In this document: piece by piece, positions 14,329 to 39,157 of the stretch
Numbering within the stretch: position 1 is the stretch's first letter
How the letters are laid out: every line of letters starts with the position of its first letter
Source of the DNA: a bacterium
Lineage (GTDB): Bacteria > Patescibacteriota > CPR2 > UBA1875 > JAJYID01
Reading direction: 5' to 3'
DNA length: 64,000 nt
NCBI GenBank assembly: GCA_030647205.1
Contig: JAUSJO010000002.1
Span: 305,771 to 369,770, forward strand
The notes under the pieces: model-generated
Database searches by the model: none
What the model saw: the letters and a program-made list of their open reading frames with translations, nothing else
Told to the model about the DNA's origin: nothing
Made by a program: the position numbers and the translations under genes

Positions 14329-15315
14329 ATGGATACGAATGTTGTTTTAATTTTAGCAGGGCTGATAGTTGCCGGTTTTGTGGCGATAGCTGTTTTTATT
14401 AACAAAAAAATGGAATCTTTAGGCCAGAAAGATGACGGGCTCGATAGACTGCACGAGAGAATGGATAAGCAGTTTGAATCCAGTACGAAGATTATTCAGG
14501 ATGTGACCGAGAAACTTTCTAAATTAGAGAATACAAACACCCAGATAGTTGGGATCACCGAACAGCTTCAGGGGCTTGAGGATGTTTTGAAAAATCCTAA
14601 ACAAAGAGGTATTTTGGGCGAATATTATCTAGAAACTTTACTCAAAAACCTATTCCAGCCGAACCAGTATCAAATGCAGTATTCTTTCAAAGATGGCGAT
14701 ATTGTTGATGCGGTGATATTTATCAAAGACAAAGTTATCCCGATCGATTCCAAGTTTTCACTTGAAAATTACAACAAAATTTTGAAGGAAAAGGACGAAA
14801 CGAGAAAAATCCAGCTAGAAAAACTTTTCAAACAGGATTTAAAGAACAGGATCGATGAGACTTCTAAATATATCAAACCGAAAGAGGGAACGATGGATTT
14901 TGCTTTTATGTTTATCCCTTCGGAAGGTATTTACTATGATTTGCTAGTTAATCAAGTTGGAGCTTTGAAGGTTAATACCCGTGATCTAATCGAGTACGCA
15001 TTCAAAGAAAAGAAAGTGATTATAGTTTCTCCGACATCTTTTGCTGCATATTTACAGACAGTTTTACAAGGGTTGCGTGCGCTTACAATCGAGGAGTCAA
15101 TCAAGGATATCGTTGCTAATATTCATAAGTTGGGAAGCCATTTGAACTCTTACGAAGAATATATGCAAAAAGTGGGATCAAATCTTGGCACGACGGTCGG
15201 GATGTATAACAAAGCCTATAAAGAATTCGGTAAAATCGATAAGGATGTGACAAAGATTACCGGAAGCTCCATAGACTCTGATATCCTTCAAATAGACAAG
15301 CCGCAAGAGGACTGA
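14329..15315 (+). CDS. rmuC: DNA recombination protein RmuC
   Basis: An N-terminal TM helix and a long coiled coil are followed by the conserved RmuC C-terminal block (DFAFMFIPSEGIYYDLL). Confidence 0.7.
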   Translation: MDTNVVLILAGLIVAGFVAIAVFINKKMESLGQKDDGLDRLHERMDKQFESSTKIIQDVTEKLSKLENTNTQIVGITEQLQGLEDVLKNPKQRGILGEYYLETLLKNLFQPNQYQMQYSFKDGDIVDAVIFIKDKVIPIDSKFSLENYNKILKEKDETRKIQLEKLFKQDLKNRIDETSKYIKPKEGTMDFAFMFIPSEGIYYDLLVNQVGALKVNTRDLIEYAFKEKKVIIVSPTSFAAYLQTVLQGLRALTIEESIKDIVANIHKLGSHLNSYEEYMQKVGSNLGTTVGMYNKAYKEFGKIDKDVTKITGSSIDSDILQIDKPQED

Positions 15316-16080: not shown

Positions 16081-16449
16081 ATGGCCTGGAAAAAGTATAT
16101 AAACGGGATGACTTTCGGAGTGCTTGTCCTATCTCTCGTCTTGGTGGGACTGGTTAACTTTACTTCTCCCGAAGCAGGAGCTATAAGCTATGGCTCGTTT
16201 TTTATCAGCTTTTTTCTGCTCCTGATATGCCTGGCTACAATATTCGGGTTTTATGCGCGCAGGAGAATATCAAATAACGAGGTTTTGTATAAAAATCTCA
16301 AGAACGCTTTCCGCCAAGGAACTCTTGTAGCACTATATTTCACCGTTCTTTTAATTCTTCGAGCAGCTGCGCTTCTAAACTGGTGGGACGCAGCACTTCT
16401 TGCGGTGAGTGTCATATCATTTGATATGTTTTTCAAGGGAAAAATGTAA
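16081..16449 (+). CDS. hypothetical integral membrane protein (3-4 TM)
   Basis: The ORF is hydrophobic. A TGCTTATAAT box lies at 16041-16050. Confidence 0.45.
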   Translation: MAWKKYINGMTFGVLVLSLVLVGLVNFTSPEAGAISYGSFFISFFLLLICLATIFGFYARRRISNNEVLYKNLKNAFRQGTLVALYFTVLLILRAAALLNWWDAALLAVSVISFDMFFKGKM

Positions 16450-17444
16450 TGGATATACAAAGCATTAAAAAACAATTTGAAGAAGATCTTTCAAAAGCCG
16501 TGTCGAAGGACGACTTGGTTGGTTTGAAAGTGAAATATTTGGGTAAAAAAAGCGAAATTTATAGTGCTCTCAGGTCTCTTGGGGATTTAAACCCTGACGA
16601 AAGGAGGGCTCAAGGTGCCGAGCTAAATAGATTGAGAACTGAGATTGAGAGCGCAATCAAAGATAGGGGAGGAGAACTTTCCAGCGGTGAAAAGGGAGTG
16701 AAAGTCGACTTTACTGAGCCCGGCAAAAAGTTCGAACTTGGGCATAAGCATCCAATTACTCAAATTTATGAGGAACTTTTTGAAATCGGTAAATCGCTCG
16801 GTTTTTCTATTGCCGAGGGACCCGAAATAGAAGCCGACTGGTACAGCTTTGAAGCGCTGAATATTCCGAAAGATCATCCCGCCAGAGACTTTGCCGATAC
16901 ATTTTATATAAGTGAAGAGGTTAACTTAAGGCCTCATACTTCAAATACCCAGATCCGATATATGGAGAGGCACAAACCGCCAATTAGGATTATTGCGTAT
17001 GGACGGACTTATCGGAAAGACAGCGACGTCACTCACACTCCTATGTTTCATCAGCTTGAGGGGCTGCTTGTAGATGATCGGGTAACATTTTCTGATCTGA
17101 AAGGTGTTTTGACCACATTTGCACAAGGAATTTTCGGTAAAGATAGGAAAGTAAGATTTAGACCGCATCACTTTCCATTTACTGAGCCATCCGTTGAGAT
17201 AGACGTATCCTGCGGCCTATGTGGAGGTAAAGGGTGCCGGTCATGTAAATATTCTGGTTGGCTTGAAATACTTGGTGCCGGTATGGTCCATCCAAATGTT
17301 TTGAAAAATTCTGGTATTGATTCTAAAAAGTATCAAGGATTTGCATTTGGCATAGGTATCGAACGCATAGCGATGTTGAAATATGAGACTGATGATTTGA
17401 GATTATTCTTTGATAATGACTTAAGATTTCTGGAGCAGTTCTAA
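16449..17444 (+). CDS. pheS: phenylalanine--tRNA ligase alpha subunit
   Basis: Class II aaRS motifs are present ([17 protein letters not shown]; GAGMVHPNV). Confidence 0.9.
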
Positions 17445-19783
17445 TGAGGATTCCACTAAATTGGCTAAAAGAATATGTTGATGTGAAGATTTCGGTAAAG
17501 GAATTGTCTGATAAATTGACTATGGCCGGGACAGAAAACGAAATTCTTCAAGCGAAGGCGGGGGATTTTGAGGGTATTGTTGTTGGTGAAATTCTGGAGA
17601 TTACAAAACATCCGAATGCTGATAAGCTTCAAATAACAAATACTTTTGTTGGTAAAGAAACTTTGCAGATAGTTTGCGGAGCGCCGAATATAGAAGTCGG
17701 GCAGAAAGTTCCTGTTGCGCTTATTGGGACACAAATCGGTGAGTTTGAGATTAAGGAGGCAGAACTTCGCGGAGTGAAAAGCCATGGCATGTTGTGCAGT
17801 GAGGCAGAACTTGGGATATCGGATGATCACTCGGGGATTATGGTTTTGGACCCTCGTTCCAATGTCGGAGACAGCTTGTCTAATGCTTTAAGCATGGGTA
17901 GTGATAAAATTTTAGAGGCTGAGCTTACCTCTAATCGCGGTGATTGCCTTTCAATGTTTGGTATTGCACGTGAGGTCTCAGTGATAACCGGGCAAAGCTT
18001 AAAGCCACCGGCTATAAATATTAAAGAAACAGGAGAAAAAACATCGGATGTGGTGGCAGTTGAGATAGGAGATAAAGATTTATGTCGGCGGTATGTAGCT
18101 AGGGTTATCAAAAATGTAAAAATTGGGCCTTCGCCAAAATGGATGCAGGACAGACTGTCTTCCTCAGGGGTACGTCCAATAAACAATGTTGTCGATGTAA
18201 CAAACTATGTAATGCTTGAGATGGGGCAGCCTCTACATGCATTTGATGCTGACAAAATATCTGGCAGAAAAATCATTGTAAGGAAAGCAAATAAGGGAGA
18301 AAAGATAAAAACCCTAGATGGGGTTGTACGTGAACTTAATACAAGCGACTTGGTAATAGCTGATACGAGGGAAGCGGTAGCGGTTGCCGGAGTTATGGGT
18401 GGTGCAAATAGTGAAGTTACAGCCGAGACGAAGACAATAGTCCTTGAGTCGGCAAACTTTAATCCGATATCAGTAAGAAAGACTGCTTTTAGGTTAGCTC
18501 TGAGATCAGAAAGTTCTGCAAGGTTTGAGAAGGGTCTACCGCTTGAGTTGGCTAATCAGGCTGCTGATAGGGCGGCATTTTTGCTTACTGAGGTTGCGGA
18601 TGGAGAGGTTCTTTCCGGAAGGGTAGACATTGGTGAAAAAAATGATGAGGAGATAAAAGTTACTTTAAGATTCGATCGAATAAAATCATTTCTTGGAGAA
18701 GACATCTCCCCTGATAAAGTAGCTAGTATTCTGGAGAGTTTGGGTATTAAAACTCTATCTAAAAATAAAGAGAAAGCTGAATTTTTGGTTCCGTATTGGC
18801 GGCTTGATATCTCAATTGAGGAAGATTTGCTTGAGGAAGTTGCACGCATTTATGGATATGAAAATATACCAAGCACCTTGCCGGAAGGTAAGCTGCCACT
18901 ATTTGAGAAAAATGAGAAAGTCGAGACTTCAAAGAAGATAAGAGAGGTTTTAACAGCGCTCGGGTTTTTCGAAATATATTCGTATTCATTCACGAGCAAG
19001 GAAAAAGCGGCTCTCTACAGAGAAGGCGCCGATCTTGTCAGGATTGCAAATCCTTTAAGCCAGGATCAGGAGTATATGAGGGCTGATCTTCTGGGGAGCA
19101 TGATTGATATTGTTCCCAAGAACCAAGACTATAGGACAGGTAAAATGCAGGGTCTGTATGAAATAGCCAGTGTATATTCAAAAAAGAGTGAAAAGACGAA
19201 ACTAAGCGGACTTATATACGGCGGAGGAAAGGATACTGGCTTTAGGTATATAAAAGGTACAACAGATATACTTTTTAACAAACTTGGCATAAAAAATGTT
19301 ATTTACAAAGAGGACAAATCAACTAATGCTAAGATTTTTGCTGGCCAAAAAGAAATTGGTTATTTTGTGATCTTAGATAATGCAGACATAAAGCGTTTTA
19401 AGGTAAAATCAAAGGGTGCCTGTTTTTTTGAGCTTGACTTGGATATGCTGTCAGAGCTTACTGGGCAAAATAAATTCCAAAGTATTCCCAGATTTCCGGG
19501 ATCGGAAAGAGATTTGACCTTTGTTATCAAAGAAAAGGTGACAGTTGAAGAAATATATGAGATCATTGGTGGAATAAAGTCAGATATTAGGGCAAAGGCC
19601 GAGGTTATCGATATTTATCGCGGTAAAGGTTTGCCTGAGGGTAGGAAAAGTGTTTCGATACGTTTTGTATACCAGTCTAGCCAACGAACACTTACTGATG
19701 AAGAGGTTGATGATGATCAAACAACAATTATTAAAGAAGTTAAGGGCACACTTGGAGGGATTTTGAGAGGTGAAGGAAACTAA
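17444..19783 (+). CDS. pheT: phenylalanine--tRNA ligase beta subunit
   Basis: The N-terminus is [13 protein letters not shown], with a tRNA-binding domain and B3/B4 and B5 domains. It overlaps the pheS stop. Confidence 0.9.
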
Positions 19784-21419
19784 AGCAGCCAGAGTAGACT
19801 CTATTACAAGAAAAAATCCTTTTTCTTTTGTTAAGAGCAAGGCAAGTTCAGTGAGTCTTAAAAAAGAAGAGTCTAAAAAAGATGCTCCAAAAAATGAGCC
19901 GTTAAAACGCGCTGTGAAAAATGAAAAAAAGAAAAAATTTAAATTTCTCGAGTTCAAAAAGACACGGCTCTTTTCTTGGCATGGCTCCCTTACTATTTTG
20001 ATTCTTTTGCCAATATTCCTTTTTGGTGTAGTTTCGTATTTATACCAGACTCATAATGAGGGGAAGATCTATAGTGGGGTAACAACTTTTGGTATAGATG
20101 TCGGTGGGAAAACAAAAGAAGATGCAGCGAAGTTAATAGATAATAAAATTGCAAGTTATCAGCTTACGATTGAGGGAGAAAATCAGAAGTTTGAAGCAGG
20201 ATATGGCGATCTTGGTATAAATTACGACAAGGAAACAATTCTAAACGCGGCCTACGACTATGGTCGTGATGAAAGTCTTTTGAACAATTTTATTAACCGG
20301 GGAAAAAGATTTTTTTCACAGTATGAGATAAGTGTTGGTTCAAAAAAATATTCTTTTAAAAAATATGATGTACATTTGGTTTATAACATTGATGGGGCTA
20401 AACTTGATAAATATTTGGCAGACCTTGAAACTAAAATCAATGTTGATGCAAAAGACTCCCAGATTACAAACAGCGGAAGTTCTGTACAGATAACACCGGC
20501 AGTATTCGGAAGAAAAATGAAGACAGCCGAGCTAAGGCAGCAAATCCTAAATGTTACGACTCAGTTTGACGCTGAGCCTCTAAAAATACAGACCGATGTA
20601 GCTAACCCAACTATTTTAGACGAGAAAACCAAGGTTTTGGCGGATCAGGCGGATAAGATTACTTCAAAAAGCGTTACAGTTACTTTCAATGATAAAAAAT
20701 ATTCGCCGACAAAGAGTGTGCTTGTATCTTGGGTTACGTTTACGAGGGACAACGATAAAGCAGATTGGAGGATGCTGATAGATACCAAGAGAATGTATCC
20801 TTATTTTGACTCAATCGGCAAGGAGATCAATGTATATTCAGTACCTAAAAAGATAAGGGTGGAAAATGAAACTAAAGAGGTAGTGACTCAGGATGGTAAA
20901 AACGGCTTGATTATTGATAAGTATGCTTTCGGGAGTCAGCTTGCATCAAAACTTCAGACAGATGCGCAAGTCAACATGGCCATACCAATGAAGGTTGATG
21001 TATTTCAGACCCAGATAGACCGTGTGGTTGTCGCAAACTGGGATAAGTATATTGATGTCAATATTTCAACACAACACATGGAAGCTTACACAAAAGGTGG
21101 TGTCAAAGTCGGCAGCTGGGCTATAACTAGTGGCAAAAATGGCTTGAGTACTCCTATCGGTAGTTTCTTGATACAAAGAAAAGCATACAACGTATGTATG
21201 CCAAATCCACCAAGCACTCAACCACTATGCGGTATTCATTATGTTAGCTACTTTACCGGAGCGGGTCATGCAATACATCAAGCATGGTGGAGAAGTTACT
21301 TTGGCGGACAGGACTATAAATGGAACGGATCCCATGGGTGTATAAATGCTCCTCTTTCTGTAGCTCAGTTCATTTATAACTGGGCGCCCATTGGGACACC
21401 TGTAACTACCCATTACTAG
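19770..21419 (+). CDS. L,D-transpeptidase family protein with Lys-rich cytoplasmic tail, TM anchor and PG-binding-like domains
   Basis: The C-terminal YkuD catalytic motif is present (…HAIHQAWW…GSHGCINAP). GTG start overlaps the pheT end. Confidence 0.7.
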
Positions 21420-21853
21420 AAAAGTTTCATATGTTGACGAGCTGATGATTCCTTGGAGAAACTGAGTAATTTTTTTATTCATTACTATCTCCAGAAAACT
21501 CTTGCCGTTGAGGCAGAATTTCCCTATTATAGTAGTAATGTTTTAGCTTTAAACCTAAAGAATAATTTTTCGGGGGGCGATTGAAGTATAAAGAACGTAA
21601 GGTAAAGAGCACGAAAAGTAAGATTATAGCATACATAGCAAGGTGTTCGGCTTTTGTATGTAAAAATACTGAGCAGTCTTGTAGTTTAGCTAAGCACTCA
21701 TGGCTATGCCGTGAAAAGAAGGTAGTAGTCTTCCCTATTAGGGAGTTACTTAAGGTATTTTATTTCTTAAAAAATATATTTGTTCTCCTGCGTCTTGTTT
21801 ACTATGAACTGCTTTATTTCGCACACTTAAGGGTTAGATTCTTACATGATCAG

Positions 21854-24800
21854 ATGTATCAAGGTAATAAGACCTATAAAAAAGTAAATGATTTTAAGTA
21901 TACAAGGCCTATTCGCAAGGCAACAATCCTGGGGTTTGTTATATCGTTTTTCATTTTTCAGGTTATGGGAAGTCTCTGGCCGGAGATTTTTAACCCCGCC
22001 CACCCCAAGGTAGCAGAAGGCGGAAGCAACACTGTTACTTGGACGACAGATGCTGACTTTAACGCAGGCACTACTAAAAGCGGTGTTAAGGTTCAGAGTG
22101 ACAGTGTGACGCTAAATGATCCTGATATTATCCCTGAAGTAAAAGCGTCTGGGAATGACCTCTATGCCGTTCGCTTTTTGGATACTAATAATGGATACGC
22201 AGTTGGAATGAGCGGCCTTCTTTTAAAAACTATAGATGGCGGTGTCAACTGGTCAACAAAAAACCCGGGAACTAGTAATAATTTAAATGAAATTTATATA
22301 GTAGATGCTAACATATCTTATGTGGTGGGAGATGGCGGTGTCATTAGGAAAACGACAGACAGCGGAACGACATGGGCCACTCAAACTTCCGGAACAACAA
22401 ATAACTTAAATGGCGTTTACTTTACAGACGCAAACACCGGTTATGTGGTTGGAGATTCTGGAACAATCAAAAAAACCACAGATGGGGGTACAAACTGGGT
22501 TGCCCAGACTTCAGGGACAACCTATGCCTTTGAGGATATCTTTTTTGTCGGTGGTAGTACAGGATATGCTGCCGGATCAAACGGGTCTATATATAAAACT
22601 TTAGACGGAGGCACAAACTGGGTTATCCAGGCTACAGCAGCCGGTACTTCTTATAATTCAATATACTTCACAGACGCAAATACGGGTTATGCACCAGGTA
22701 ATATTGTTCTTAAAAAAACCACAGACGGAGGCACAAACTGGACCACCAACTACTCACTTAGCGGGAACACATGGTATGGGGTACACTTTGCTGACGCAAA
22801 TACTGGTTACGTGAGTGGTTCTAGTGGCAAGGTAAGAAAAACTATAAATTCGGGTACAAGCTGGACAGATCAGACTACGGGGTTTGGAGCGGGTAATGTT
22901 TATGACATTTACTTTACAGATGCTAATAACGGTTATGCAGTCGGGGCTAGCGGCAAGATTATAAAAACCACGAATGGCGGTGCAAACTGGACTTTGAAAA
23001 CTTTGAGTGTGACAGGTAACAACCTAAATAGTACTTACTTCACAGACTCAAATACCGGCTATGCAGTAGGGAACTCGGGCACTATCTTAAAAACTACAAA
23101 TGGTAGCGCGAGTTGGTCGGCCCTAACGTCTGGGACGTCAAGCGTCTTAAATGGTGTTTACTTTACGGATAACAATACTGGATACGCGGTTGGTGCAAGT
23201 GGTCTTATAAGGAAAACCACAGATGGGGGAGCGAACTGGGTTGCCCAGACTTCAGGGACAACCTATGCCTTATATGGCATACATTTTACAGATGCAAGTA
23301 CCGGGTATACAACGGGGGATAATGGGACGATATTAAAAACCACAGATGGGGGAGCGAACTGGGTTGCCCAGACTTCAGGGACGACGGGCTATTTTAGGGA
23401 CGTTTACTTCACAGATGCTAACACCGGCTTTCTTGCAGGAAGATACGGTATATACAAGACCACAAATGGGGGCACAAACTGGTCTTCAGTCTCTGGCTCT
23501 GATATCTATTTAAACAGCATGTATTTTACAGATGCAAATACCGGATATGCAGTCGGTAACAGTGGGACAATCATAAAAACCACAAATGGTGGTGCAAACT
23601 GGGCTGCCCAGACCTCAGGGACGACAAATCAGTTAAATAGTACTCATTTTACAAGTGCTAGCACTGGTTACATAGTTGGTGTTAACGGTACTATTCTTGA
23701 GACAAATGATGGGGGCACAAACTGGTCGTTGACGTCTGTGGGTACGTCTTTAAGTAGCGTTTATTTTACAGATGCTAACACCGGTTATGCAGTTGGTAGT
23801 ACTGGGTTTATTTTGAAGTTTTATCCTCAATATGCTACTTCGGGGGATATCTCTGGACTTAAGGTAGATGCAGGAGAAGGGGCAAAGGCGAACTGGTCTA
23901 GTATCACCAATAGCTCAACACTACTATCTAATACGTCAGTAAGTTTTCAGACAAGAGGCTCAGACGATAACTCTACTTGGTCCGGGTGGCAATCTCTAAG
24001 CGGTGAGACGATCCAAACTGCGGAGTATAGATATTTAGAAGTCAAAGCAACTTTGTCAACTTCTGACGGGCTACACACCCCATCGCTTAATGATCTTACG
24101 GTTACTTATGACAATCTCGAAGCCCCAGTAAATAGTAATATCACTTTAACAAAAACTGATGGTACGGCACTTAAAACAAGTGCGGGGGATGACCTGGCTG
24201 GCGGTGTAGCCGGAGGCTGGACAAATGCAACCACTGTTAGGTTAACGGCAACCGGCTTAACATGTGGGCAAGGAACTCCTGAAAATCCGACCTGTGGTTC
24301 AAGCTCGACAAACAGAAGACCTGAGGTTGAAATCAAAGAAATGGGAACTGTTTTTGATGGGGCTGTAACATATGAGGCAGTTAGTGGTAATAGCTATGTG
24401 GATGTGGCCTTGCCGGGGATTCCAGTCACAGGACAAGAATATCATATACGTGCAAGGAGTATTGACGATGAGGGCAAAGCGTCTGGATGGACTCAATATG
24501 CTAGCGATACTGCGGCTATTACGTATGATAATACTCCCGCAGGAGTATTTAATATCTCTACGCCCGCAGATAATAACTGGGGGACGGCAAGACCTACCTT
24601 TACTTGGGCTAGCACCTCTGATGCTAACTCTGGTATCAATAAATACCAGCTATACATAGATGGCGCACTAGATACCGACAATATTTCGGCGGTAGCCACT
24701 TCAGTTCAGGCAACAAACTCACTTATTGATGGAAGTCATACTTGGTATGTAAAGGCTGTCGATAATGCCGGTAATGCAAGGCAATCAACCAGTACATTTA

Positions 24801-27800
24801 CAGTCAATATAGACACTAGTGCACCGACATCATTCAACTTATCGACCCCGGCGAACAATTCATGGACAAACAACACTGGACCCACCCTGACATGGACAGC
24901 TTCTTCTGACCCGCATTCGGTCTTAGCAAAATACCAACTATATATCAACGGTAGCTTAAATAGAGACAACATTTCTTCAGTTGCTACCTCAACTACACCA
25001 ACAGGGTCTCAAACAGGAACATACTCATGGTATATAAAAGCAATAAATAATGCCGGCGGTGAGACAAATTCGGCGACCTATACTATCAACTATGACAACG
25101 CAGCCACATTCCCGTCACCTTTTGTAGCCAGCAGCAATGATGCGGAAAAGGTAGTCGTCTCATGGTCAGATCAAAATACAGGCGCTCCGACTGATACGTT
25201 CACAGTTCACAGGGTTAAGAAGTCAGAGTATGATAGTAACTCTTGGACAAAGGACAGTGATTGGAGTACAGGAACGGATTATGGCGTCTTTACAATTGCA
25301 GGAGGGGTTGGCGTCCTAAATGACAGTTCTCTTGGAGCGGTTCAAGGTCAGCCAATCATCTCTCAGTCGGTAAATTATGTCTACAAAATAAAATCAACGG
25401 ATACAGCTGGTAACGCATCCGGTTGGTCCAGCGTTGTTATCGGAAGAACAACCGATACAGCCGATCCTCAGGATCCATCTACCGTGACAGCAGTTGCTTG
25501 TGACGGAACGGCTCCGAACTGTTCAAACATTCTCAATAAGGGCTATGAAATCAAGCTGGCTTGGGCGGCCTCCAATGATTTTGGTTCAGGAGTGACCGGT
25601 TATAAAGTTTATAGAAATACGGCAAACTCTACAGATCCAAGTACATTTGCACTGGTCGGATATCTCGATGTACCAACACCGGGGGCTCCTGTTAGTACTG
25701 TCTACTATGATAATGACGCAAACAATGATAAACACGATTTCACTGACACTATAAATGAACAACAGGTAAGTATAAAAGCTGCCGCAACAGGGAGATTAAA
25801 TGATTACGTTAACTACTATTATAGGATAGTGGCGGTGGACGCTGTAGGAAACGAGACCAACATTATTACAACTGAAGGGCTAGGGTTACCAAACTACACT
25901 AACTATGCCACCGCAAGGACCCCTGACGTAACTTCTCCTTCGACCCCTCAGAATGTAGTTGTTACGCCTATGGGCCTTGACTCATCTGGTGGCGCTCAGC
26001 GAGTTGATGTTACCTGGAGTACTTCAACTGATATTACCAGTAGAAACGCAGGAGCAAGCGGTTCCGGGATTGCCGGATATAAAGTGATGCAATGTCAGGG
26101 TGACGGCACATTCTGTACTGATGATGGTAACTATAGTCAAATTGGTACAACATCCTCGACTAACTACACGAAAGAAGGCCTTGGAGAGTTCACTTGGTAT
26201 TACTATAAAATTATTGCTGTAGACAAGGCATCGTCAGCAACTATAACAGATACTTCTAATAACAGTTCAGCAAGAAGCTCATCGGCCTCAGTAAAAACAG
26301 CTTCAAATACAGTGCCAACGGTACCACTTTCCGTGAATGTAACGACAAAAACCGGTGATCCAAATACAGATAGCGATGTTGGTCATCAAAATACTGTTAC
26401 ATTTAACGGGTCATATGCCAAAAACTGTGCCGGTGGTGAACGCTGTGTTACGGGATACGAGATTTATCGCTCTACTGATAACTTTGCTTCAAGTTCGTTA
26501 AAAATTGCAGACGTTTCTATAGGTGCAGTTGGGGATGAAAGGAGTGTCACTTATACCTATATAGATAATAACTCGACGAACGATGCAACGGCGCCATCGA
26601 TTTCCAGAAGTTCAGGCGGAACTCCAGCTTTGAGTAAAGCACAAACCGCTCATTTGGTTGATGCAGCGACATATTATTATAAAGTGAAATCAAAAGACAA
26701 CACTCCAACAGTTCCCGACGGAGGACCATTTACTTCAGGCATGTCTTCGGTGGCTGTCGGTACTCTTCATGCTGGTTGGGATACAACCCCAGATGCAACA
26801 GATCCAGATGTCCCCCAAAGTGTAGCTGTAAAAAATATTCATCCAAATGACTCAATGGTTAGAAATATTATCACATGGACAATGATTCCGGATTCTACCA
26901 GAAACGGAACAAGTGACTTCTCAAAGTACCAGATCTATCGTTATGAGGTTCTGTTGGGCAGTGGTACGGCGACACTTATTGCAGAGAAAACTGATCGGGG
27001 AGATAACTATCATGTTGACGGGATTACAAACGGCCAAAAGGATAAAGATTATGCATATTATGTTGTAGCGGTAGACAATGCAGGGACAGACTTCAAATAT
27101 GCAAACGGGCAAATCATAAATCCTACATCCAACACGAGCAGCCATATAGCAACAGTTTCGATAAATCCTGGGGCAGTGAATCCTAGCGTATCAGGCACTA
27201 CAGTTGCGAGCACGGGCGTATCATCTGCTACTATAAACTGGTCTACGAACCAAGAGACAGATTCATTGGTAGAGTATAAGGTAAAAGATTCAAATGATGT
27301 GATTGCGGCAGGGAAAGACAGAACCCAACCGACAACAAGCCATTCTGTCTCCCTAGGAAACTTGAGCAAAGGTGTTGCTTACCAATATAGGATTGTCAGC
27401 CGTAACTCACTTGGTAATATTGATGAGTCTGCCGCAAATACATGGAAAGAGTTCTCAACCCAGGATTTTTATATATCAGATAATACTGTTTTGACCACTA
27501 CATCTACGGCGACTATAAGTTGGAACACAAACATCGACTCTGACTCATATGTGGAGTATAAACCGGAAGGATCATCAGAAAAGTATGAGGTTGCCGGTGA
27601 TGCTGTTCCGACGAAAAACCACGAGGTAACACTTAAGGGTTTGGTGCCGAACAGTCATTATACATATAATCTTCGTTCCGTCACTTCTGATAAATATATT
27701 GTTACAAAAAATCTCGATACCTTTAAAACCCGCGACAACGATCTCGATAAATTCAGAATTACACCGGGGGAAACCAATGTTTCGGAACAAAATATTACGG

Positions 27801-28726
27801 CGACTACAACTCAGATTACATGGACCACAACGGTTGCGACTACTTCATGGGTTGAGTATGGAACTGAGGTTGGAGTTTACTCGATGAGCGCCGGTGATAA
27901 TGATTTAAATACCCTGCATGCTGTTAAACTCACAAACTTGAGGCCAGGGACAAAGTACTTCTATAGAGTAAGGGGCAAAGATGAAAATGGTGTTGAACTC
28001 TTCTCGCCGGAATCATCATTTACTGCTATACTTATGCCCGAGATTTCAAACCTCAAAGTTAGAGACTTTAGCCCGTATACAGCAACGATTACATTTGATA
28101 CAAACGTTGAAACAGTTGTATCACTAAACTACGGCAAAGACACTAGCTATGGGTCAAGCGTGACTGTCGCAAAAGCGGAGAAAAATCACGTCATTACTCT
28201 TAAAGAACTTGACGATAACGCAACATATCATTTCCAGGCGTCTGCTACGGATCAGTTCAAAAACAATATTAAGTCTTCCGATATGATATTCTCAACCCCG
28301 CTTGATACCCAAGGACCGGAGGTGTCGGAGCTCAAAGTTGATGTTTTGCCTGTTTCTGACGCATCAGAGACAGCATCGGTTATCATTTCCTGGACAACAG
28401 ATAAGCCTGCAACAACGCAGGTGGAGTACGATGACAAGGGTGGCGGGGAAAAATATGAAAACCACACTATAGAAAACGCTACCTTAAATACGTCTCATAC
28501 GGTTTTGATCAAAGACCTAAATACATCGGCTAACTATAGATTTAGGATTATATCTAAGGATAAGAGAAATAATCTGACCAAAACGAAAGCTTCAAACTTT
28601 ATCACCCCGACAAAAGAAAAGTCACTGCTTCAGATAATTATAAAATCATTCGAAGATACATTTTCTTGGACAAAGAATGTTCCGCAGTTTTTTGGTAAAA
28701 TAGGAAATCGGCTAATGGGTCAATAG
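21854..28726 (+). CDS. giant cell-surface protein (2,291 aa): signal anchor, ~20 Ycf48/BNR-like Asp-box beta-propeller repeats, then Fn3-like and purple-acid-phosphatase-N-like domain arrays
   Basis: Repeats of type YAVGxSGxIxKTTDGGxNW(x)QTSGTT run from ~22150 to 23750. The remainder is Ser/Thr-rich. About six modules of type TxATISWxTNxxSDSxVEYxxxxS…YxYRxxS run from 26700 to 28500. The start is taken at ATG 21854 (MYQGNK…, followed by an anchor helix). The in-frame ORF extends upstream to 21581. Confidence 0.8.
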   Translation: MYQGNKTYKKVNDFKYTRPIRKATILGFVISFFIFQVMGSLWPEIFNPAHPKVAEGGSNTVTWTTDADFNAGTTKSGVKVQSDSVTLNDPDIIPEVKASGNDLYAVRFLDTNNGYAVGMSGLLLKTIDGGVNWSTKNPGTSNNLNEIYIVDANISYVVGDGGVIRKTTDSGTTWATQTSGTTNNLNGVYFTDANTGYVVGDSGTIKKTTDGGTNWVAQTSGTTYAFEDIFFVGGSTGYAAGSNGSIYKTLDGGTNWVIQATAAGTSYNSIYFTDANTGYAPGNIVLKKTTDGGTNWTTNYSLSGNTWYGVHFADANTGYVSGSSGKVRKTINSGTSWTDQTTGFGAGNVYDIYFTDANNGYAVGASGKIIKTTNGGANWTLKTLSVTGNNLNSTYFTDSNTGYAVGNSGTILKTTNGSASWSALTSGTSSVLNGVYFTDNNTGYAVGASGLIRKTTDGGANWVAQTSGTTYALYGIHFTDASTGYTTGDNGTILKTTDGGANWVAQTSGTTGYFRDVYFTDANTGFLAGRYGIYKTTNGGTNWSSVSGSDIYLNSMYFTDANTGYAVGNSGTIIKTTNGGANWAAQTSGTTNQLNSTHFTSASTGYIVGVNGTILETNDGGTNWSLTSVGTSLSSVYFTDANTGYAVGSTGFILKFYPQYATSGDISGLKVDAGEGAKANWSSITNSSTLLSNTSVSFQTRGSDDNSTWSGWQSLSGETIQTAEYRYLEVKATLSTSDGLHTPSLNDLTVTYDNLEAPVNSNITLTKTDGTALKTSAGDDLAGGVAGGWTNATTVRLTATGLTCGQGTPENPTCGSSSTNRRPEVEIKEMGTVFDGAVTYEAVSGNSYVDVALPGIPVTGQEYHIRARSIDDEGKASGWTQYASDTAAITYDNTPAGVFNISTPADNNWGTARPTFTWASTSDANSGINKYQLYIDGALDTDNISAVATSVQATNSLIDGSHTWYVKAVDNAGNARQSTSTFTVNIDTSAPTSFNLSTPANNSWTNNTGPTLTWTASSDPHSVLAKYQLYINGSLNRDNISSVATSTTPTGSQTGTYSWYIKAINNAGGETNSATYTINYDNAATFPSPFVASSNDAEKVVVSWSDQNTGAPTDTFTVHRVKKSEYDSNSWTKDSDWSTGTDYGVFTIAGGVGVLNDSSLGAVQGQPIISQSVNYVYKIKSTDTAGNASGWSSVVIGRTTDTADPQDPSTVTAVACDGTAPNCSNILNKGYEIKLAWAASNDFGSGVTGYKVYRNTANSTDPSTFALVGYLDVPTPGAPVSTVYYDNDANNDKHDFTDTINEQQVSIKAAATGRLNDYVNYYYRIVAVDAVGNETNIITTEGLGLPNYTNYATARTPDVTSPSTPQNVVVTPMGLDSSGGAQRVDVTWSTSTDITSRNAGASGSGIAGYKVMQCQGDGTFCTDDGNYSQIGTTSSTNYTKEGLGEFTWYYYKIIAVDKASSATITDTSNNSSARSSSASVKTASNTVPTVPLSVNVTTKTGDPNTDSDVGHQNTVTFNGSYAKNCAGGERCVTGYEIYRSTDNFASSSLKIADVSIGAVGDERSVTYTYIDNNSTNDATAPSISRSSGGTPALSKAQTAHLVDAATYYYKVKSKDNTPTVPDGGPFTSGMSSVAVGTLHAGWDTTPDATDPDVPQSVAVKNIHPNDSMVRNIITWTMIPDSTRNGTSDFSKYQIYRYEVLLGSGTATLIAEKTDRGDNYHVDGITNGQKDKDYAYYVVAVDNAGTDFKYANGQIINPTSNTSSHIATVSINPGAVNPSVSGTTVASTGVSSATINWSTNQETDSLVEYKVKDSNDVIAAGKDRTQPTTSHSVSLGNLSKGVAYQYRIVSRNSLGNIDESAANTWKEFSTQDFYISDNTVLTTTSTATISWNTNIDSDSYVEYKPEGSSEKYEVAGDAVPTKNHEVTLKGLVPNSHYTYNLRSVTSDKYIVTKNLDTFKTRDNDLDKFRITPGETNVSEQNITATTTQITWTTTVATTSWVEYGTEVGVYSMSAGDNDLNTLHAVKLTNLRPGTKYFYRVRGKDENGVELFSPESSFTAILMPEISNLKVRDFSPYTATITFDTNVETVVSLNYGKDTSYGSSVTVAKAEKNHVITLKELDDNATYHFQASATDQFKNNIKSSDMIFSTPLDTQGPEVSELKVDVLPVSDASETASVIISWTTDKPATTQVEYDDKGGGEKYENHTIENATLNTSHTVLIKDLNTSANYRFRIISKDKRNNLTKTKASNFITPTKEKSLLQIIIKSFEDTFSWTKNVPQFFGKIGNRLMGQ

Positions 28727-28771
28727 ACAGTTGTGGCATTTAGTCAGTAATTAGGTTAAAAGGAGATCAAA

Positions 28772-29161
28772 ATGAGTCAAGCAGATAACATACAAGCGCC
28801 TATACCGGAAAGTAAGGAGCAAGTAACAAACAGCCAGGGAGAGATCAAAGAAGCGGCTTTACCAGAAACAGGGTCTCAAAAAATGGGTGAGCCTGTCCCA
28901 GGGACTACGAAAAGCGATAATACAATACCCGCTACTATTTCTAAAGTTTTGGAACCGGATGCAAAAACTCCCGCGGTTCAGCCAGCTTCCGGTACTGCGC
29001 CGGCTTCCGCACAAAGGCCTTCCAGTGAGCCATATATTAAAGCAGCAGAAGATATCATACAAAAAGATAAGGGCGATCCGCATAAAGAGGAAGACGATCA
29101 CGAAGTTATACAGATGCAGTATCTAAGCAACCGTTTTGGTAAAAATATAAAAAAGAAATAA
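28772..29161 (+). CDS. low-complexity Pro/Ala/Ser/Glu-rich hypothetical protein (likely disordered)
   Basis: AAAGGAG RBS is present. There are no hydrophobic segments. Confidence 0.45.
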   Translation: MSQADNIQAPIPESKEQVTNSQGEIKEAALPETGSQKMGEPVPGTTKSDNTIPATISKVLEPDAKTPAVQPASGTAPASAQRPSSEPYIKAAEDIIQKDKGDPHKEEDDHEVIQMQYLSNRFGKNIKKK

Positions 29162-29162
29162 T

Positions 29163-31673
29163 ATGGTATTTATTGTTTTAGGAGGGTGTTTTCTTTTATG
29201 TCTTTCGGGACTGGTGGTTTTGTATTTCTACAAAAAAACTAAGGCGTACAAAAAGCAGGTTGAAAGGTCTCTCAAAATTGTTCCTCTTAAAATAACAGTT
29301 CCCAGAGATCTTGGATCAAAGAATATGCAGGGCCAGACGCGTGACGACAGAGAAGCAGCGAAAGAGATTGTATCCTTTATGGAAACTTTTTATGCCAATC
29401 TCTCCACTATTTATAAAAGGGGTTTTAAGAATATTCACAGAAATTTTTTTTATGGTCAAAGGCACCTATCACTTGAAATTATTGCCAAGGACAGGGAAAT
29501 ATTCTTTTATATGGGGGTTCCGGTAATCTTAGTTGATATGGTTGAGAAAATGCTTTCTTCTCAGTATCCTGAAGCATTGATTGAAGAGTCAGAAGAACTG
29601 AATATTTTTTCCGAGGAATGGAAAGAGGTGGGAGTTTGCGGAGGAGAGCTGAAACTGCTAAAGAAATTTATTTATCCTATTAAAACATATAAAAACATTG
29701 ATTCTGAACCTTTGGAGTCTATAACAAATGCTTTAAGTAGAATGAGCCAAGGAGAGGGAGCAGCTATTCAGATGCTTATTCGCCCGGTCAGTGCAAGGAA
29801 GATGGGAGGTGGCCGCTCTGCCGTAAGAAAGTCACAAAACCAAAAAAACAGAGGTAGTATCGCAGGACAGATTATAGATGCGACACTGACAAACGGTCAA
29901 GGTTCTCAATCCCAAGAGCCGGTAAAACTTACGGCAATGGAAGAAGAGGTAAATAAGGCTATTGAAGAAAAGGCGGGGAAACCAGCATTTGAGACGATTA
30001 TCCGATTTGTTGTTTCAACTCAAACACCACATCGCAGCGAGATGATTTTAGCTGAACTCCAAAGTGCCTTTGCCCAGTTCAACGATCAAAATCTAAATGG
30101 TTTCAAATTTGTGAGAGAAAAAAACGTTGATAAACTTGTAACCGACTATATCTTCCGATTTTTTGAACATAAACTCTTTTCTTTAAATAGCGTTTTAGGA
30201 AATTTTCTCGGCCATAAAAGTATTTTAAATACCGAGGAGCTATCCAGCATATTCCACTTACCTAACTATTTGACGCCGTCCCCCGGTATCAATTGGCTCC
30301 CCGCAAAAATGGTTGAGCTTCCATTAAACATTCCACAAGAAGGAACCGTTATCGGTAAGGCTACATATAGAGGAGAGGAAAAAGTGATCCGAGTTTCAGA
30401 TGTTGATAAAAGAAGGCATGTTTATATCCTTGGACAAACCGGTACAGGTAAGTCAAACCTGATGAAGAACATGATAGTTGATGACATTATGCGGGGGAAA
30501 GGCGTTGCTTATATTGACCCGCATGGTCAGGATTTGGAAGATGTTATCAGTAAGATCCCCAAAGAGAGAGCGGAAGATGTAATAATTTTTGACGCCGGTG
30601 ATATTGAAAGGCCGATGGGGCTCAACATATTTGAGGCGGAAACAACCGAACAGAAAGATCTGGTGACAAACGAAGCGCTGGACATCTTGTATAGTTTGTA
30701 TGACCCTAACCATTCCGGCCAAATATTTGGGCCGCGTTTTGACCACTGGTTTAGGAACGCTGCCTTGACTTTGATGGCTGACCCGGCAGGAGGTACATTT
30801 ATAGAAATTCCAACCTTGTTTACTAACGAGAGGTTTTTAGCGGAAAAGTTAAAACATGTTGAAGACCCGATAGTTAGGAGCTTCTGGGTTGATGAGTTCG
30901 CAAATACATCGCAACAGGTTAAGTCTGAGATGTTAAGCTATTTCATCCCCAAGTTTGGTGCTTTCATGACCAATACCACCATGCGAAATATTATGGGTCA
31001 ACCCATTTCCTCATTAAAGTTGAGAGAGATTATGGATAACAAAAAGATACTGCTTGTAAACCTTTCTAAGGGTAGAATCGGCGAAAAAAACATGAAGCTT
31101 TTAGGAATGATTTTTGTTATAAAGCTTCAGGTGGCGGCTATGTCTAGGGCAGATGTTCCTGAGGATCAGAGACAGGACTTCACTCTTTATGTTGATGAGT
31201 TTCAAAACTTTCTTACTGAGTCATTTGCCCAGATACTTTCCGAGGCGCGAAAGTATAGATTTATCCTTGTTGTTGCGAACCAGTTTGTCGGGCAGTTGAC
31301 TGACGAGATCAGAACGGCCGTTTTTGGTAACGTTGGTACGGTGATGTCGTTCAGGGTTGGCCCCGAAGACGGCGAGTACATGGTAAAACAGTTTGAACCT
31401 GTTTTTAATGTTAACGATATGCTTAATATGGAAAATGGATACGCTGTAATAAGACTGATGATAAACGGATATCCATCCAGACCGTTTATAGTGAATCCTA
31501 CGTGGCCGCCTATAGGTGTGTCTAATCCGAAAGTTGGTGAAGCGATAAAGCAGCTTTCAAGACTTAAATATGCAAAACCAAAAGAAATTGTAGATCAAGA
31601 GGTTTTGAGCCGTATGCCGATACAAAGTGCTGGTTCTCAGGAAGCAAGTTCTGGTGATTTGCCAAGATCATAA
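29163..31673 (+). CDS. membrane-anchored VirD4/TraG/TraD-like (type IV coupling protein / FtsK-HerA superfamily) P-loop ATPase
   Basis: An N-terminal TM helix and a ~330-aa unique domain precede Walker A (ILGQTGTGKSNL), Walker B (LYVDEFQNF), and ANQFVGQL and MSFRVG motifs. Confidence 0.55.
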   Translation: MVFIVLGGCFLLCLSGLVVLYFYKKTKAYKKQVERSLKIVPLKITVPRDLGSKNMQGQTRDDREAAKEIVSFMETFYANLSTIYKRGFKNIHRNFFYGQRHLSLEIIAKDREIFFYMGVPVILVDMVEKMLSSQYPEALIEESEELNIFSEEWKEVGVCGGELKLLKKFIYPIKTYKNIDSEPLESITNALSRMSQGEGAAIQMLIRPVSARKMGGGRSAVRKSQNQKNRGSIAGQIIDATLTNGQGSQSQEPVKLTAMEEEVNKAIEEKAGKPAFETIIRFVVSTQTPHRSEMILAELQSAFAQFNDQNLNGFKFVREKNVDKLVTDYIFRFFEHKLFSLNSVLGNFLGHKSILNTEELSSIFHLPNYLTPSPGINWLPAKMVELPLNIPQEGTVIGKATYRGEEKVIRVSDVDKRRHVYILGQTGTGKSNLMKNMIVDDIMRGKGVAYIDPHGQDLEDVISKIPKERAEDVIIFDAGDIERPMGLNIFEAETTEQKDLVTNEALDILYSLYDPNHSGQIFGPRFDHWFRNAALTLMADPAGGTFIEIPTLFTNERFLAEKLKHVEDPIVRSFWVDEFANTSQQVKSEMLSYFIPKFGAFMTNTTMRNIMGQPISSLKLREIMDNKKILLVNLSKGRIGEKNMKLLGMIFVIKLQVAAMSRADVPEDQRQDFTLYVDEFQNFLTESFAQILSEARKYRFILVVANQFVGQLTDEIRTAVFGNVGTVMSFRVGPEDGEYMVKQFEPVFNVNDMLNMENGYAVIRLMINGYPSRPFIVNPTWPPIGVSNPKVGEAIKQLSRLKYAKPKEIVDQEVLSRMPIQSAGSQEASSGDLPRS

Positions 31674-31826: not shown

Positions 31827-33917
<2,091 letters not shown>

Positions 33918-37648: not shown

Positions 37649-39157
37649 ATGAGTAAACTAATAAATAAATTTAAAAAGAAAGTGGTAGTACTTGCGAGTG
37701 TGATGCTTGTCTTGCAGCCGCTTTTGGGACTGGCAGTTTTGCCGGCAAATACATTGGCTGCAGATCCTTGTATAGGTCTAAACAGCGACGTTGTCATCAA
37801 TGAAGTTTATGTTGATGCTACCGCTGCCAACGATAATGATAGTGAGTTTATTGAACTATACAATAACTCTGCTAGCTCTTGCGTTGATATTAGCGGATGG
37901 AAGATTCAGACTGATGGTGGTGGTGTTGCCGATGCTACATTGCCAGCAAGTACGAAAATATCTGCACAGGGTTATTATTTAATAGCTGATAATGGTTGGG
38001 CGGCTTCTAGAGATAATATGTCATGGCCGCTTGCCGATAATGATGAGTATGAATTAGACCTCAATAATTCAGACGCTGGGATTGCTCTGGTTGATGACTC
38101 TGCGGAGCCAGTTGTAATAGATGCAGTTGGATATGGAACACCGGCTGAAATATGGGGCGGTTTCGAGGGAACGACTCCAATGGCAAATGCTGACGTAGTA
38201 AATCCTAATAGTATTGCGAGGATTCCTGCCGGTACTGATACTGACGAAAATTCAGATGACTTCTTTCCTGGTACTCCAACACCAAAGAGTTCAGATATCG
38301 TTGCGCCGGTTGTTACTGGAGTGGAAGACGAGAAATATTATAGTGATAGTGTAACTCCTGTATTTACCGAAGGAACCGGTACTCTATCTCAAGATGGTGG
38401 TCCGGCAGATCCATTTACAAGCGGAACATCGGTCACTTCAGAAGGATCCTACGTTTTAACTGTAACTGATGCAGCAGGGAATGCGACAACTGTAAATTTC
38501 GTAATTGACACAACTAAGCCGGCATTTACCTCAACAGTTACTCCGAAGATTGCCGGGCCGGGTGTAAAAACAGTTGATATTACAATTACTACGAATGAAC
38601 CGTTAAAATCTCAGGTTGGACCAGAAGGAGCGTATGAACTTATGTTAGTCATCAACGAACCGGGTGGTACTCTGACTACTGTATACCTCAATCATGACAT
38701 AAGCGACCCGACAGGGAAGACATTTACATATGCTTATACAATCCAAACCGCTGGCAAAAAACATGTTTCAATGAACGTTGGTGGAACTAACTTGGCTGGT
38801 CTTGGTAATTTCGGATCTGCAGTAGATGGTTTCGATATTGACAATATTGTTCTCTCGCCGGTAGTTACTACTCCTACAACTTCTGTAGTTACTGCGGTTG
38901 CGACTGTACCGGTTGATGAGCAGTTTGGTGGTGGTTCTTCTTCTGATCAGGGTGAAGTGAAAGCAGATACAACCATAAAGACAGACGATGGAAGCAAGAC
39001 CGATGATAGCAATCAGCAAAAAGATGATGTAAAGGGTAAAAAGAATATTCCACTTTGGGGTATCATATTCTTACTTATCCTAGCTGGGATTGGCGGTTAC
39101 CTCTTCTACTCACAAAATCCTGATAAGCCTTCCGGTAGATCAAACGGAAAGAAGTAA
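37649..39157 (+). CDS. secreted/surface protein with lamin-tail domain (LTD) and C-terminal membrane anchor
   Basis: A signal peptide is followed by the LTD motif VVINEVYVD…EFIELYNNSASSCVDISGWKIQ. Ser/Thr-rich regions follow, then a C-terminal TM helix (IPLWGIIFLLILAGIGGYLFY). Confidence 0.65.
   Translation: MSKLINKFKKKVVVLASVMLVLQPLLGLAVLPANTLAADPCIGLNSDVVINEVYVDATAANDNDSEFIELYNNSASSCVDISGWKIQTDGGGVADATLPASTKISAQGYYLIADNGWAASRDNMSWPLADNDEYELDLNNSDAGIALVDDSAEPVVIDAVGYGTPAEIWGGFEGTTPMANADVVNPNSIARIPAGTDTDENSDDFFPGTPTPKSSDIVAPVVTGVEDEKYYSDSVTPVFTEGTGTLSQDGGPADPFTSGTSVTSEGSYVLTVTDAAGNATTVNFVIDTTKPAFTSTVTPKIAGPGVKTVDITITTNEPLKSQVGPEGAYELMLVINEPGGTLTTVYLNHDISDPTGKTFTYAYTIQTAGKKHVSMNVGGTNLAGLGNFGSAVDGFDIDNIVLSPVVTTPTTSVVTAVATVPVDEQFGGGSSSDQGEVKADTTIKTDDGSKTDDSNQQKDDVKGKKNIPLWGIIFLLILAGIGGYLFYSQNPDKPSGRSNGKK

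Follow-up and report, generated by a model that had tools for sequence, protein, structure and literature searches.

A predicted two-gene module of Patescibacteria pairs a small disordered protein with a VirB4/VirD4-like ATPase

Introduction

What does an ATPase resembling the motors of type IV secretion systems (T4SS) do in a chromosome region with no other gene of such a system? The question is raised by a 64,000-nucleotide stretch of Patescibacteria (candidate phyla radiation, CPR) chromosome (contig JAUSJO010000002.1, positions 305,771 to 369,770; hereafter the window), in which the gene for a P-loop ATPase of the DUF8128 family follows genes for an L,D-transpeptidase, a giant surface protein and a small disordered protein. 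A sequence-only reading of the window had suggested that the ATPase could be an export or anchoring motor dedicated to the giant protein, with the disordered protein as a linker. Here we report that related loci point instead to the pair of small gene and ATPase gene as the conserved unit, with the giant gene as a variable neighbour, and that the inferred counterparts of the pair in Southlakia epibionticum are both essential.

A large part of bacterial diversity belongs to the Patescibacteria, which live as epibionts. No T4SS before theirs had been shown to be essential for its own bearer, and the gene cluster that encodes it is without a recognisable coupling ATPase.

Results

The small gene is the consistent companion of the ATPase

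About 90 related loci (named L001 and so on) were fetched, and their open reading frames (ORFs) were called and clustered. Across CPR classes, the only consistent companion of the ATPase was a small upstream ORF: a small ORF on the same strand lies upstream of the ATPase gene at 66 of 82 loci, compared with 101 of 324 other genes of at least 300 aa (31%; odds ratio 9.1, p = 7e-16). These gene orders indicate that the small gene and the ATPase gene constitute a conserved two-gene module of Patescibacteria. In the window, the ATG of the ATPase gene lies 1 nt beyond the TAA stop of the small gene, a spacing that may allow translational coupling, and no terminator-like site was found on the + strand from 28726 to 31673.

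The small protein (isoelectric point 5.2, grand average of hydropathy -0.96) has no Pfam or NCBIfam match. Residues 1–84 are acidic and rich in Pro, Ala, Thr and Gln, with 76% disorder-promoting residues; the disorder described in the sequence-only reading is borne out, while the linker role given there yields to that of the only conserved partner of the ATPase. The C-terminal ~45 residues, which in the window read EPYIKAAEDIIQKDKGDPHKEEDDHEVIQMQYLSNRFGK, are conserved, with the consensus DLIEKEWVxKAKxIVxxTKxDP[YHF]xQxxExxKLxADYLKKR[YF]GK, in which P and Y are invariant. This motif is common to 34 loci of the window clade and the Saccharibacteria, where the small proteins are homologous and have variable, disordered N-terminal parts rich in Pro, Ala, Gln and Thr. 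A search with the small protein as a single sequence returned two close relatives only. A profile of the C-terminal motif returned 682 proteins, none of them annotated by Pfam, and both matches whose context was checked (L090 and L091) lie directly upstream of a DUF8128 ATPase.

The idea of one homologous small partner in all CPR classes was rejected, as a hidden Markov model (HMM) of the 34 cluster-1 proteins added no members among the loci in four iterations. The JGI name ‘Txe/YoeB family toxin’, borne by several orthologues of the small partner (P0127, P0128 and P0133 among others), was also set aside: none of 31 alignment members matches any Pfam toxin family even at E <= 1, and the label looks like an annotation artefact.

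The wider context of the ATPase gene is housekeeping throughout but differs between lineages. It reads pheST-ykuD...gyrBA in the window clade and ...gyrBA-PAP2 in Saccharibacteria; Microgenomatia-like loci have nrdR together with genes for ribonucleotide reductase and cobalamin adenosyltransferase, a fourth group has a ribosomal-protein/secY cluster...dnaX, and parB is found near the ATPase gene in L089. A conserved membrane-channel partner was considered and discarded, since the 520–680-aa proteins encoded upstream or downstream in several loci are without transmembrane (TM) segments, Pfam matches or mutual homology, except for a short C-terminal stretch common to Microgenomatia-like loci.

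A predicted VirB4-like N-domain precedes a coupling-protein-like motor

The ATPase is predicted to be a single-pass, cytoplasm-facing and catalytically intact P-loop enzyme. Residues 2–24 are its sole hydrophobic 19-residue window (Kyte-Doolittle 2.77) and are followed by the basic stretch KKTKAYKK; by the positive-inside rule, the protein beyond the TM helix is predicted to be cytoplasmic. In a 40-sequence alignment reaching down to 49% identity (mean column identity 62%), residues G424, Q425, T426, G427, G429 and K430 of Walker A and Y676, D678, E679 and F680 of Walker B are invariant. Hydrophobicity, profiles and Foldseek all agree with the sequence-only reading of a membrane-anchored P-loop ATPase of the coupling-protein/FtsK-HerA class with a single TM helix.

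The family is CPR-wide, with more than 4,565 homologues in a large protein database. An identical protein (P0001) carries the precomputed annotations PF26449 (DUF8128) and PF01935 (DUF87), and PF26449 is annotated in the N-terminal half of essentially all of the top 120 homologues. With the PF26449 match taken from precomputed annotation and the DUF87 match recomputed in our own Pfam scan (28.5 bits against a cut-off of 23.2), the protein falls within the DUF8128 + DUF87 family. Approximately 360 residues lie ahead of the ATPase domain, somewhat more than the ~330 noted from sequence, and the large pre-ATPase domain can now be given a predicted fold, that of the VirB4 N-terminal domain.

This assignment comes from AlphaFold2 (AF2) models of the full ATPase (predicted local distance difference test, pLDDT, 82) and of residues 36–395 alone (pLDDT 83.8, predicted template modelling score 0.83). 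With the N-domain model, Foldseek retrieved only TrwK chains at E <= 4.6e-4 (14 matches), some of them without an Hcp1 fusion, and the full-length model aligns end to end with TrwK/VirB4. The motor half aligned with almost the whole of soluble TrwB (TrwBdeltaN70 chains of 411–427 residues), with target-normalised TM-scores of 0.57–0.64 over 412–454 columns; DotL, Cagbeta and HerA were matched as well. In the AF2 secondary structure, an all-helical insertion at about residues 495–611 separates Walker A from Walker B. A phmmer search of 1.84 billion cluster representatives found the N-domain in 1,643 clusters, and in the 150 listed matches from full-length proteins it starts at about residue 35–70, right behind the N-terminal anchor.

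Some DUF8128 ATPases reach 1,500–2,000 aa (P0246, P0252 and P0257 among others; L007 and L081). These have Pro/Ala-rich disordered C-terminal tails of 850–1,180 residues, which share the motifs PPIGAPP[IV]D and DITGG and a conserved end, KGE[VI][YF]VDExGNV[IV]xG[ED]. A Rosetta-stone search for informative domain fusions in these long members found none, the extensions being without Pfam domains.

By sequence, the motor is closest to type IV coupling proteins (T4CPs). The best matches of the ATPase among PDB sequences are TrwB and DotL; the family profile found DotL (2.5e-5), TrwB (2.7e-5) and HerA (5e-3) in the PDB sequences but did not detect TrwK there. The T4CP models SXT_TraD, TOL_TraD and TrwB_AAD_bind each matched 40 of 40 family members, with SXT_TraD down to 1.6e-16, and T4SS-DNA_transf matched 18 of the 40, down to 1.3e-12. 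VirB4 models were rarer and weaker (VirB4_CagE in 19 of 40, best 3.2e-7; AAA_10 in 6 of 40), and CagE_TrbE_VirB matched neither the window ATPase nor the 40 family members. In the window protein itself, Pfam and NCBIfam matches are weak and centred on the P-loop, comprising DUF87, TrwB_AAD_bind, TraG-D_C, SXT_TraD (2.6e-10) and the CD1115 VirD4-like model.

The protein combines features of both T4SS ATPases. Like a T4CP, it has the TrwB fold of a nucleotide-binding plus an all-alpha domain in the predicted model; directly before the motor, however, stands not a membrane domain but one TM helix and a 360-residue folded domain, and neither a relaxase nor a T4SS is encoded alongside in the window or the related loci. 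Like VirB4, it has a VirB4-type N-terminal domain, with no match to TIGR00929, CagE_TrbE_VirB or AAA_10 at trusted cut-offs (AAA_10, 18.3 bits against 27.5) and no VirB3-, VirB6- or VirB8-type component alongside in the window or the related loci. The features of FtsK/SpoIIIE (alpha, beta and gamma domains with four TM helices) and of HerA (a HAS barrel) are absent: the N-domain fold is VirB4-like rather than a HAS barrel, and FtsK_SpoIIIE (17.8 bits against 24) and helicase_HerA (17.1 against 970) score at the P-loop level only. Because the motor matches T4CP better than VirB4 models, we describe the modelled architecture as a VirB4-like N-domain behind a single TM helix, followed by a T4CP-like motor that carries the helical insertion.

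The giant surface protein is a variable neighbour

The giant ORF encodes 2381 aa from its TTG start. From the ATG at 21854 it encodes 2290 aa, begins with a TM anchor and has an N-terminus 59% identical to that of the L088 orthologue, and the TTG start is probably over-extended, the ATG being the likelier one. Pfam domains of the protein comprise Ycf48/BNR-like propeller repeats, Big_13 and several fn3 / PAP-N domains. Orthologues occupy the same slot in two relatives and are colinear to the C-terminus: L088 (49% identity over 1,696 aa; ATPase 73% identical) and L003 (31% over 1,751 aa; ATPase 55% identical). The C-terminal tail is amphipathic, and its last ~40 residues, TPTKEKSLLQIIIKSFEDTFSWTKNVPQFFGKIGNRLMG, are near-unchanged in these orthologues of 31–49% overall identity, which suggests an unrecognised anchoring or sorting element.

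In several other relatives the slot is empty. L086/L087, the closest relative (its ATPase is 87% identical), as well as L001, L005 and L089 lack the giant gene at this position, and ykuD there directly precedes the small gene and the ATPase gene; no giant homologue was found near the ATPase in the related loci of other CPR classes. Co-occurrence of ATPase and giant genes, which the sequence-only reading had proposed to look for across CPR, is thus seen in only part of the window clade (L088 and L003 besides the window), and it is the small gene that consistently accompanies the ATPase. From these distributions, the giant gene appears ancestral at this position in the clade but dispensable, a variable neighbour outside the conserved module. 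Because it has its own N-terminal signal anchor, the giant protein would need no cytoplasmic T4CP-like motor.

The L,D-transpeptidase belongs to the YkuD family (YkuD, 70.3 bits against a cut-off of 23.4; PG_binding_4, 67.6 against 22.1), and the first 14 nt of its gene lie within pheT. The order pheS-pheT-ykuD-small-ATPase is also seen in L001, L005, L086, L087, L089, L014 and L034 and was not found in Southlakia-type, Microgenomatia-like or group-4 loci. In L088 (475–2720), a MacB/FtsX-type ABC transporter pair lies on the opposite strand between ykuD and the giant gene, and the interval from ykuD to the small gene therefore acts as a variable slot for envelope genes. The best explanation of these gene contents is that neither the L,D-transpeptidase nor the giant adhesin is a client of the ATPase.

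The proposed Southlakia counterparts are essential and a paralogue is not

Transposon sequencing (Tn-seq) data for the saccharibacterium Southlakia epibionticum ML1 were taken from Table S1 of Wang et al. (PMC10633639), which gives HMM calls at three time points as essential (ES), growth defect (GD) or non-essential (NE). SEML1_0142, a core and Patescibacteria-enriched family, is called ES/ES/ES. Directly upstream of it, SEML1_0141 (139 aa) is called GD/ES/ES, with 0 surviving insertions. Downstream, SEML1_0143 and the Ig-like surface protein SEML1_0144 are NE, followed by SEML1_0145–0147, that is, gyrB (ES/ES/ES), gyrA and a divergent PAP2 protein (both GD/ES/ES). The canonical FtsK is a separate gene, SEML1_0096 (GD/ES/ES), and the essential T4SS cluster has no recognisable coupling protein (PMC10633639). 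The VirB4 of Patescibacteria is also a different gene, SEML1_0008 in Southlakia, which belongs to the T4SS cluster near dnaA.

The order and sizes of SEML1_0140–0147 match the Saccharibacteria loci gene for gene, including the DUF11/PKD protein and the DUF212 PAP2 protein. The window ATPase has the small-partner family and the linkage to gyrB in common with this essential type. The module is a core chromosomal function, and its Southlakia counterparts by synteny are both called essential in Tn-seq.

Four loci (L030, L031, L033 and L037; for example, L031 9741–17193) encode two DUF8128 paralogues, with genes for a ~187-aa protein and a 346-aa Sigma70_r4 + HARE-HTH protein between them. The group-1 paralogue has a DUF8128 N-domain and a T4CP-like motor, with a mean identity of ~36% to window-clade ATPases; its motor is 41–44% identical to that of the window protein, compared with ~52% for the adjoining group-7 ATPases, and it is preceded by the Sigma70_r4 + HARE-HTH protein, not by a small disordered protein. 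A second T4CP-like gene of Southlakia, SEML1_0293, matches this type: it is Patescibacteria-enriched, is preceded by a sigma-like protein (SEML1_0294, itself essential) and is called NE/NE/NE (PMC10633639).

In their survey, Quinonero-Coronel et al. described the Southlakia T4CP homologue as not essential and raised exaptation (PMC12102498). That statement appears to cover one of the two paralogues only, and SEML1_0293 is probably the copy meant.

Gene order and surroundings in the window

All four genes described by the sequence-only reading are present on the + strand where it had placed them, as ORFs and Pfam domains confirm (Table 1). The window genes have thousands of homologues and are real, not chance ORFs. 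The ATPase gene is flanked by housekeeping genes (rmuC, pheST, gyrB, gyrA, 16S rRNA, CTP synthase and typA), and the rest of the window holds housekeeping and transport functions. All ORFs of at least 100 aa were scanned against Pfam, with zero matches to T4SS or type IV pilus families, as had been read from the sequence; across the whole window, Pfam families of integrases, relaxases and T4SS components were all without a match. The GC content of the region, 0.38–0.45, is inside the range of the remaining window.

Table 1. Positions in the window of the ATPase gene, its parts and its neighbours
Feature	Position	Strand	Basis or remark
rmuC	14329-15315	+	
122-aa ORF	between rmuC and pheS	+	
pheS	16449-17444	+	
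pheT	17444-19783	+	
L,D-transpeptidase (PG_binding_4 + YkuD)	19770-21419	+	Pfam
Giant ORF, surface protein	21581-28726 (TTG) or 21854-28726 (ATG)	+	
Ribosome-binding site AAGGAGA of the small gene	28760..28766	+	strong site, read from sequence, 5 nt ahead of ATG
Small gene, 129 aa, disordered protein	28772-29161	+	
P-loop ATPase, 836 aa, DUF8128 family	29163-31673	+	
N-terminal TM helix, residues 2-24 (predicted)	29166..29234	+	Kyte-Doolittle + AF2 helix 2-25
Pre-ATPase domain, residues 36-395, Pfam DUF8128, predicted VirB4 N-terminal-domain fold	29268..30347	+	
T4CP-like motor domain, about residues 396-800	30348..31562	+	
Walker A GQTGTGKS, residues 424-431	30432..30455	+	
Walker B YVDEF, residues 676-680	31188..31202	+	
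gyrB	31863-33917	+	
GNAT gene	between gyrB and gyrA	+	
gyrA	34464-37229	+	

Further observations concern the neighbours. PheT measures 940–960 aa in L005 (5030–7918), L014 and L034, compared with 779 aa; in L005 it contains an internal Pfam match to NLPC_P60, a cell-wall hydrolase domain, which is an unusual insertion for a tRNA synthetase subunit, and its gene overlaps that of the L,D-transpeptidase. A lamin-tail-domain (LTD) protein of ~500–550 aa is encoded after gyrA (37649–39157), as in L001 (20183–21832), and constitutes a further conserved surface-type neighbour. The 16S rRNA gene (43123–44577) is followed by tRNA-Ile (44807–44883) and tRNA-Ala (45181–45256), and the rRNA operon is unlinked, because these are followed not by 23S rRNA but by a P-type cation ATPase gene beginning at 45375. 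The minority strand encodes a PIF1-like helicase that ends in an HTH_40 domain (54497–56164, -), in a stretch of lower GC skew (54–56 kb).

Discussion

Literature and proposed role

The DUF8128 family is already catalogued, as a Pfam domain of unknown function and among the T4CP homologues counted in the survey, and this locus is typical of the family. Neither DUF8128 nor SEML1_0142 gave a result in literature searches. In the searchable literature we did not find DUF8128 described as a VirB4 N-terminal-domain fold, which would make the protein a VirB4/VirD4 hybrid, nor a conserved small disordered partner of DUF8128 ATPases, nor a tie of the module to two essential Southlakia genes.

We give an even chance to the reading that the pair is an essential ATPase-adaptor module that serves the chromosomal Patescibacteria T4SS, encoded elsewhere, as its coupling or energising ATPase in trans. 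One N-terminal TM helix would anchor the ATPase, with the remainder in the cytoplasm. By analogy with the solved relatives TrwB, VirB4 and HerA, the motor would be a ring-shaped, ATP-driven translocation or assembly ATPase, and it may form a hexamer. In VirB4, the N-domain is in contact with VirB3 and VirB8 and is the organiser of the inner-membrane complex; the VirB4-like N-domain might dock the ATPase to a membrane platform or T4SS machine. The small protein, translated just ahead of the ATPase, may bind it through the conserved C-terminal region and would most likely be an adaptor or regulator, like CagZ for Cagbeta or the IcmS/W-type adaptors for DotL. The Foldseek matches to Cagbeta and DotL come from structures of Cagbeta bound to its small regulator CagZ and of the type IV coupling complex, respectively. 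The module would fill the coupling-ATPase role that is seemingly missing from the CPR T4SS.

Several observations weigh against a coupling ATPase acting in trans. Neither the window nor any of ~85 related loci has a T4SS gene near that of the ATPase. In published genomes, 148 of 5,713 Patescibacteria T4CP homologues lie near virB4, and VirB4 is found in 2,417 of 3,035 genomes, fewer than the VirD4-like homologues (PMC12102498). All matches to curated T4CP and VirB4 models are well below cut-off, with scores at the superfamily level only: for the window ATPase, SXT_TraD scores 39.4 bits against 366, conju_CD1115 30.6 against 250, TrwB_AAD_bind 17.2 against 20.5 and TraG-D_C 17.7 against 22. The profile comparison with the TrwB, TraD and HerA families that the sequence-only reading had proposed thus places the motor with T4CP models in every one of the 40 members without reaching a curated cut-off. 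The small upstream proteins of other CPR classes end in conserved C-termini of other kinds and show no detectable homology, so that outside the Saccharibacteria and window clades the case for a single conserved partner is one of position, size and composition. The correspondence with SEML1_0141/0142 is inferred from synteny, gene sizes and annotation, not from sequence alignment. SEML1_0142 also kept 11, 11 and 9 insertions at the three time points (PMC10633639), and part of it tolerates disruption.

Alternative explanations

Rather unlikely in our judgement, though quite possible because so few T4CP homologues lie near virB4 and because they occur in more genomes than VirB4, is an essential motor independent of T4SS: a Patescibacteria-specific translocase, exapted from T4SS ancestry, which alone or with membrane partners of its own moves DNA or protein through or along the membrane or serves chromosome or envelope biogenesis. 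VirD4-like homologues (5,713 in all) occur in 2,918 of 3,035 Patescibacteria genomes, compared with 2,417 for VirB4, and exaptation was raised by the authors of that survey (PMC12102498). The pair is never beside T4SS genes, DNA-related contexts are frequent (gyrBA, rmuC, parB in L089, nrdR with ribonucleotide reductase, dnaX), and there are two paralogues per genome that differ in essentiality. On the other hand, neighbourhoods vary by class, and simple synteny may account for the DNA-related context. The neighbouring genes include none for a conserved polytopic membrane partner, and a VirB4-type N-domain is not known in any role other than T4SS docking. Replacement of FtsK by the ATPase is ruled out, Southlakia having an essential canonical FtsK, and essential DNA uptake is unlikely, given that loss of comEC ends competence but not viability (PMC12857230). 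A bolder proposal, which we consider unlikely, takes the DUF8128 ATPases as a distinct, Patescibacteria-wide third class of T4SS-superfamily motor, in which a VirB4 N-domain fused to a VirD4-type motor might make an evolutionary intermediate or a recombinant of both T4SS ATPases. Such a motor and a fast-evolving disordered partner bearing a conserved C-terminal signal would make up an essential translocation module able to stand alone. The small protein might then be a substrate rather than an adaptor, and the essentiality would have been overlooked as the non-essential paralogue was taken for the Southlakia T4CP.

That the ATPase exports or anchors the adjacent giant protein as its dedicated motor, with the disordered protein as a linker, now seems very improbable. 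The three genes do adjoin on one strand, and no terminator is predicted to separate them, the orthologous giants of L088 and L003 sit in the same slot beside ATPases of 73% and 55% identity, the giant has a strongly conserved C-terminal tail, and Ig-like surface proteins are neighbours in Saccharibacteria as well. However, the small-ATPase pair is intact where the giant is missing, including in the relative with an 87%-identical ATPase, no giant homologue lies near the ATPase in other classes, the giant carries its own signal anchor, and Southlakia needs the ATPase but can do without the neighbouring surface protein SEML1_0144. The sequence-only reading had itself named two observations that would count against it: adjacency to giant genes is indeed unconserved, but the ATPase is not always found with a full conjugative T4SS, as the 148 of 5,713 homologues near virB4 illustrate (PMC12102498). 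Hardly credible is a conventional coupling protein left behind as remnant or cargo of an integrated conjugative element. Weak similarity to TraD, TraG and VirD4 models and the label ‘TraM recognition domain’ in the sources would fit such an origin; against it stand a GC content within the range of the window, a position between pheST and gyrBA in synteny conserved across lineages, the lack of any integrase, relaxase or T4SS Pfam match in the window, the core and essential status of the family in Southlakia, and the occurrence of relaxases in only 103 Patescibacteria genomes (PMC12102498).

If the module does serve the Patescibacteria T4SS, the missing motor or substrate receptor of that system would be identified, and the small partner could be used as bait for substrates. 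If it does not, the pair would represent an essential machine of unknown function specific to the Patescibacteria radiation. The VirB4/VirD4 hybrid architecture is also relevant to the divergence of VirB4 and VirD4. The ATPase gene flagged by the sequence-only reading is a good experimental target, and a genetic system exists in Southlakia.

Comparison with known systems

The ATPase resembles T4CPs (TrwB of R388, VirD4, TraD/TraG, DotL and Cagbeta) in its N-terminal membrane anchor, in the helical insertion between Walker A and Walker B and in its motor, which is closest to theirs by sequence profile. The Pro/Ala-rich tails of some DUF8128 members recall the partner-binding disordered C-terminal tails of DotL and TraD, and a small protein gene lies beside the ATPase gene as cagZ adjoins the Cagbeta gene in the cag gene order. 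It differs in having one TM helix rather than the usual two and a 360-residue VirB4-like domain between anchor and motor; we know of no characterised T4CP with such a domain in that place. Unlike T4CPs, it is not encoded with a relaxase or T4SS, being a chromosomal core gene with a growth-essential Southlakia counterpart.

With VirB4 (TrwK of R388; TraC/TrbE/CagE), the ATPase shares the two-domain plan of N-domain and RecA-like ATPase and the length of ~800 aa. VirB3-VirB4 fusions exist, and the N-terminal TM helix recalls them. In contrast to VirB4, its N-domain has no sequence-level match to VirB4 N-terminal models, and its motor scores better against T4CP than against VirB4 models.

Further parallels are in Southlakia. 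The SEML1_0293-type paralogue shares the DUF8128 N-domain and T4CP-like motor with the window ATPase but, unlike the counterpart of that ATPase, is non-essential. SEML1_0142, annotated ‘TraM recognition domain’ with its N-terminal ~310 residues unassigned, has 1,019 aa with a C-terminal extension, compared with 836 aa in the window. The Southlakia locus differs further in an extra upstream small gene (SEML1_0140), in two opposite-strand genes before gyrB and in the absence of ykuD and a giant gene. The local order of SEML1_0141/0142 is nevertheless that of the window, with the small gene, the ATPase gene, then gyrB and gyrA, and the corresponding Saccharibacteria loci have the C-terminal motif of the small protein in common with the window.

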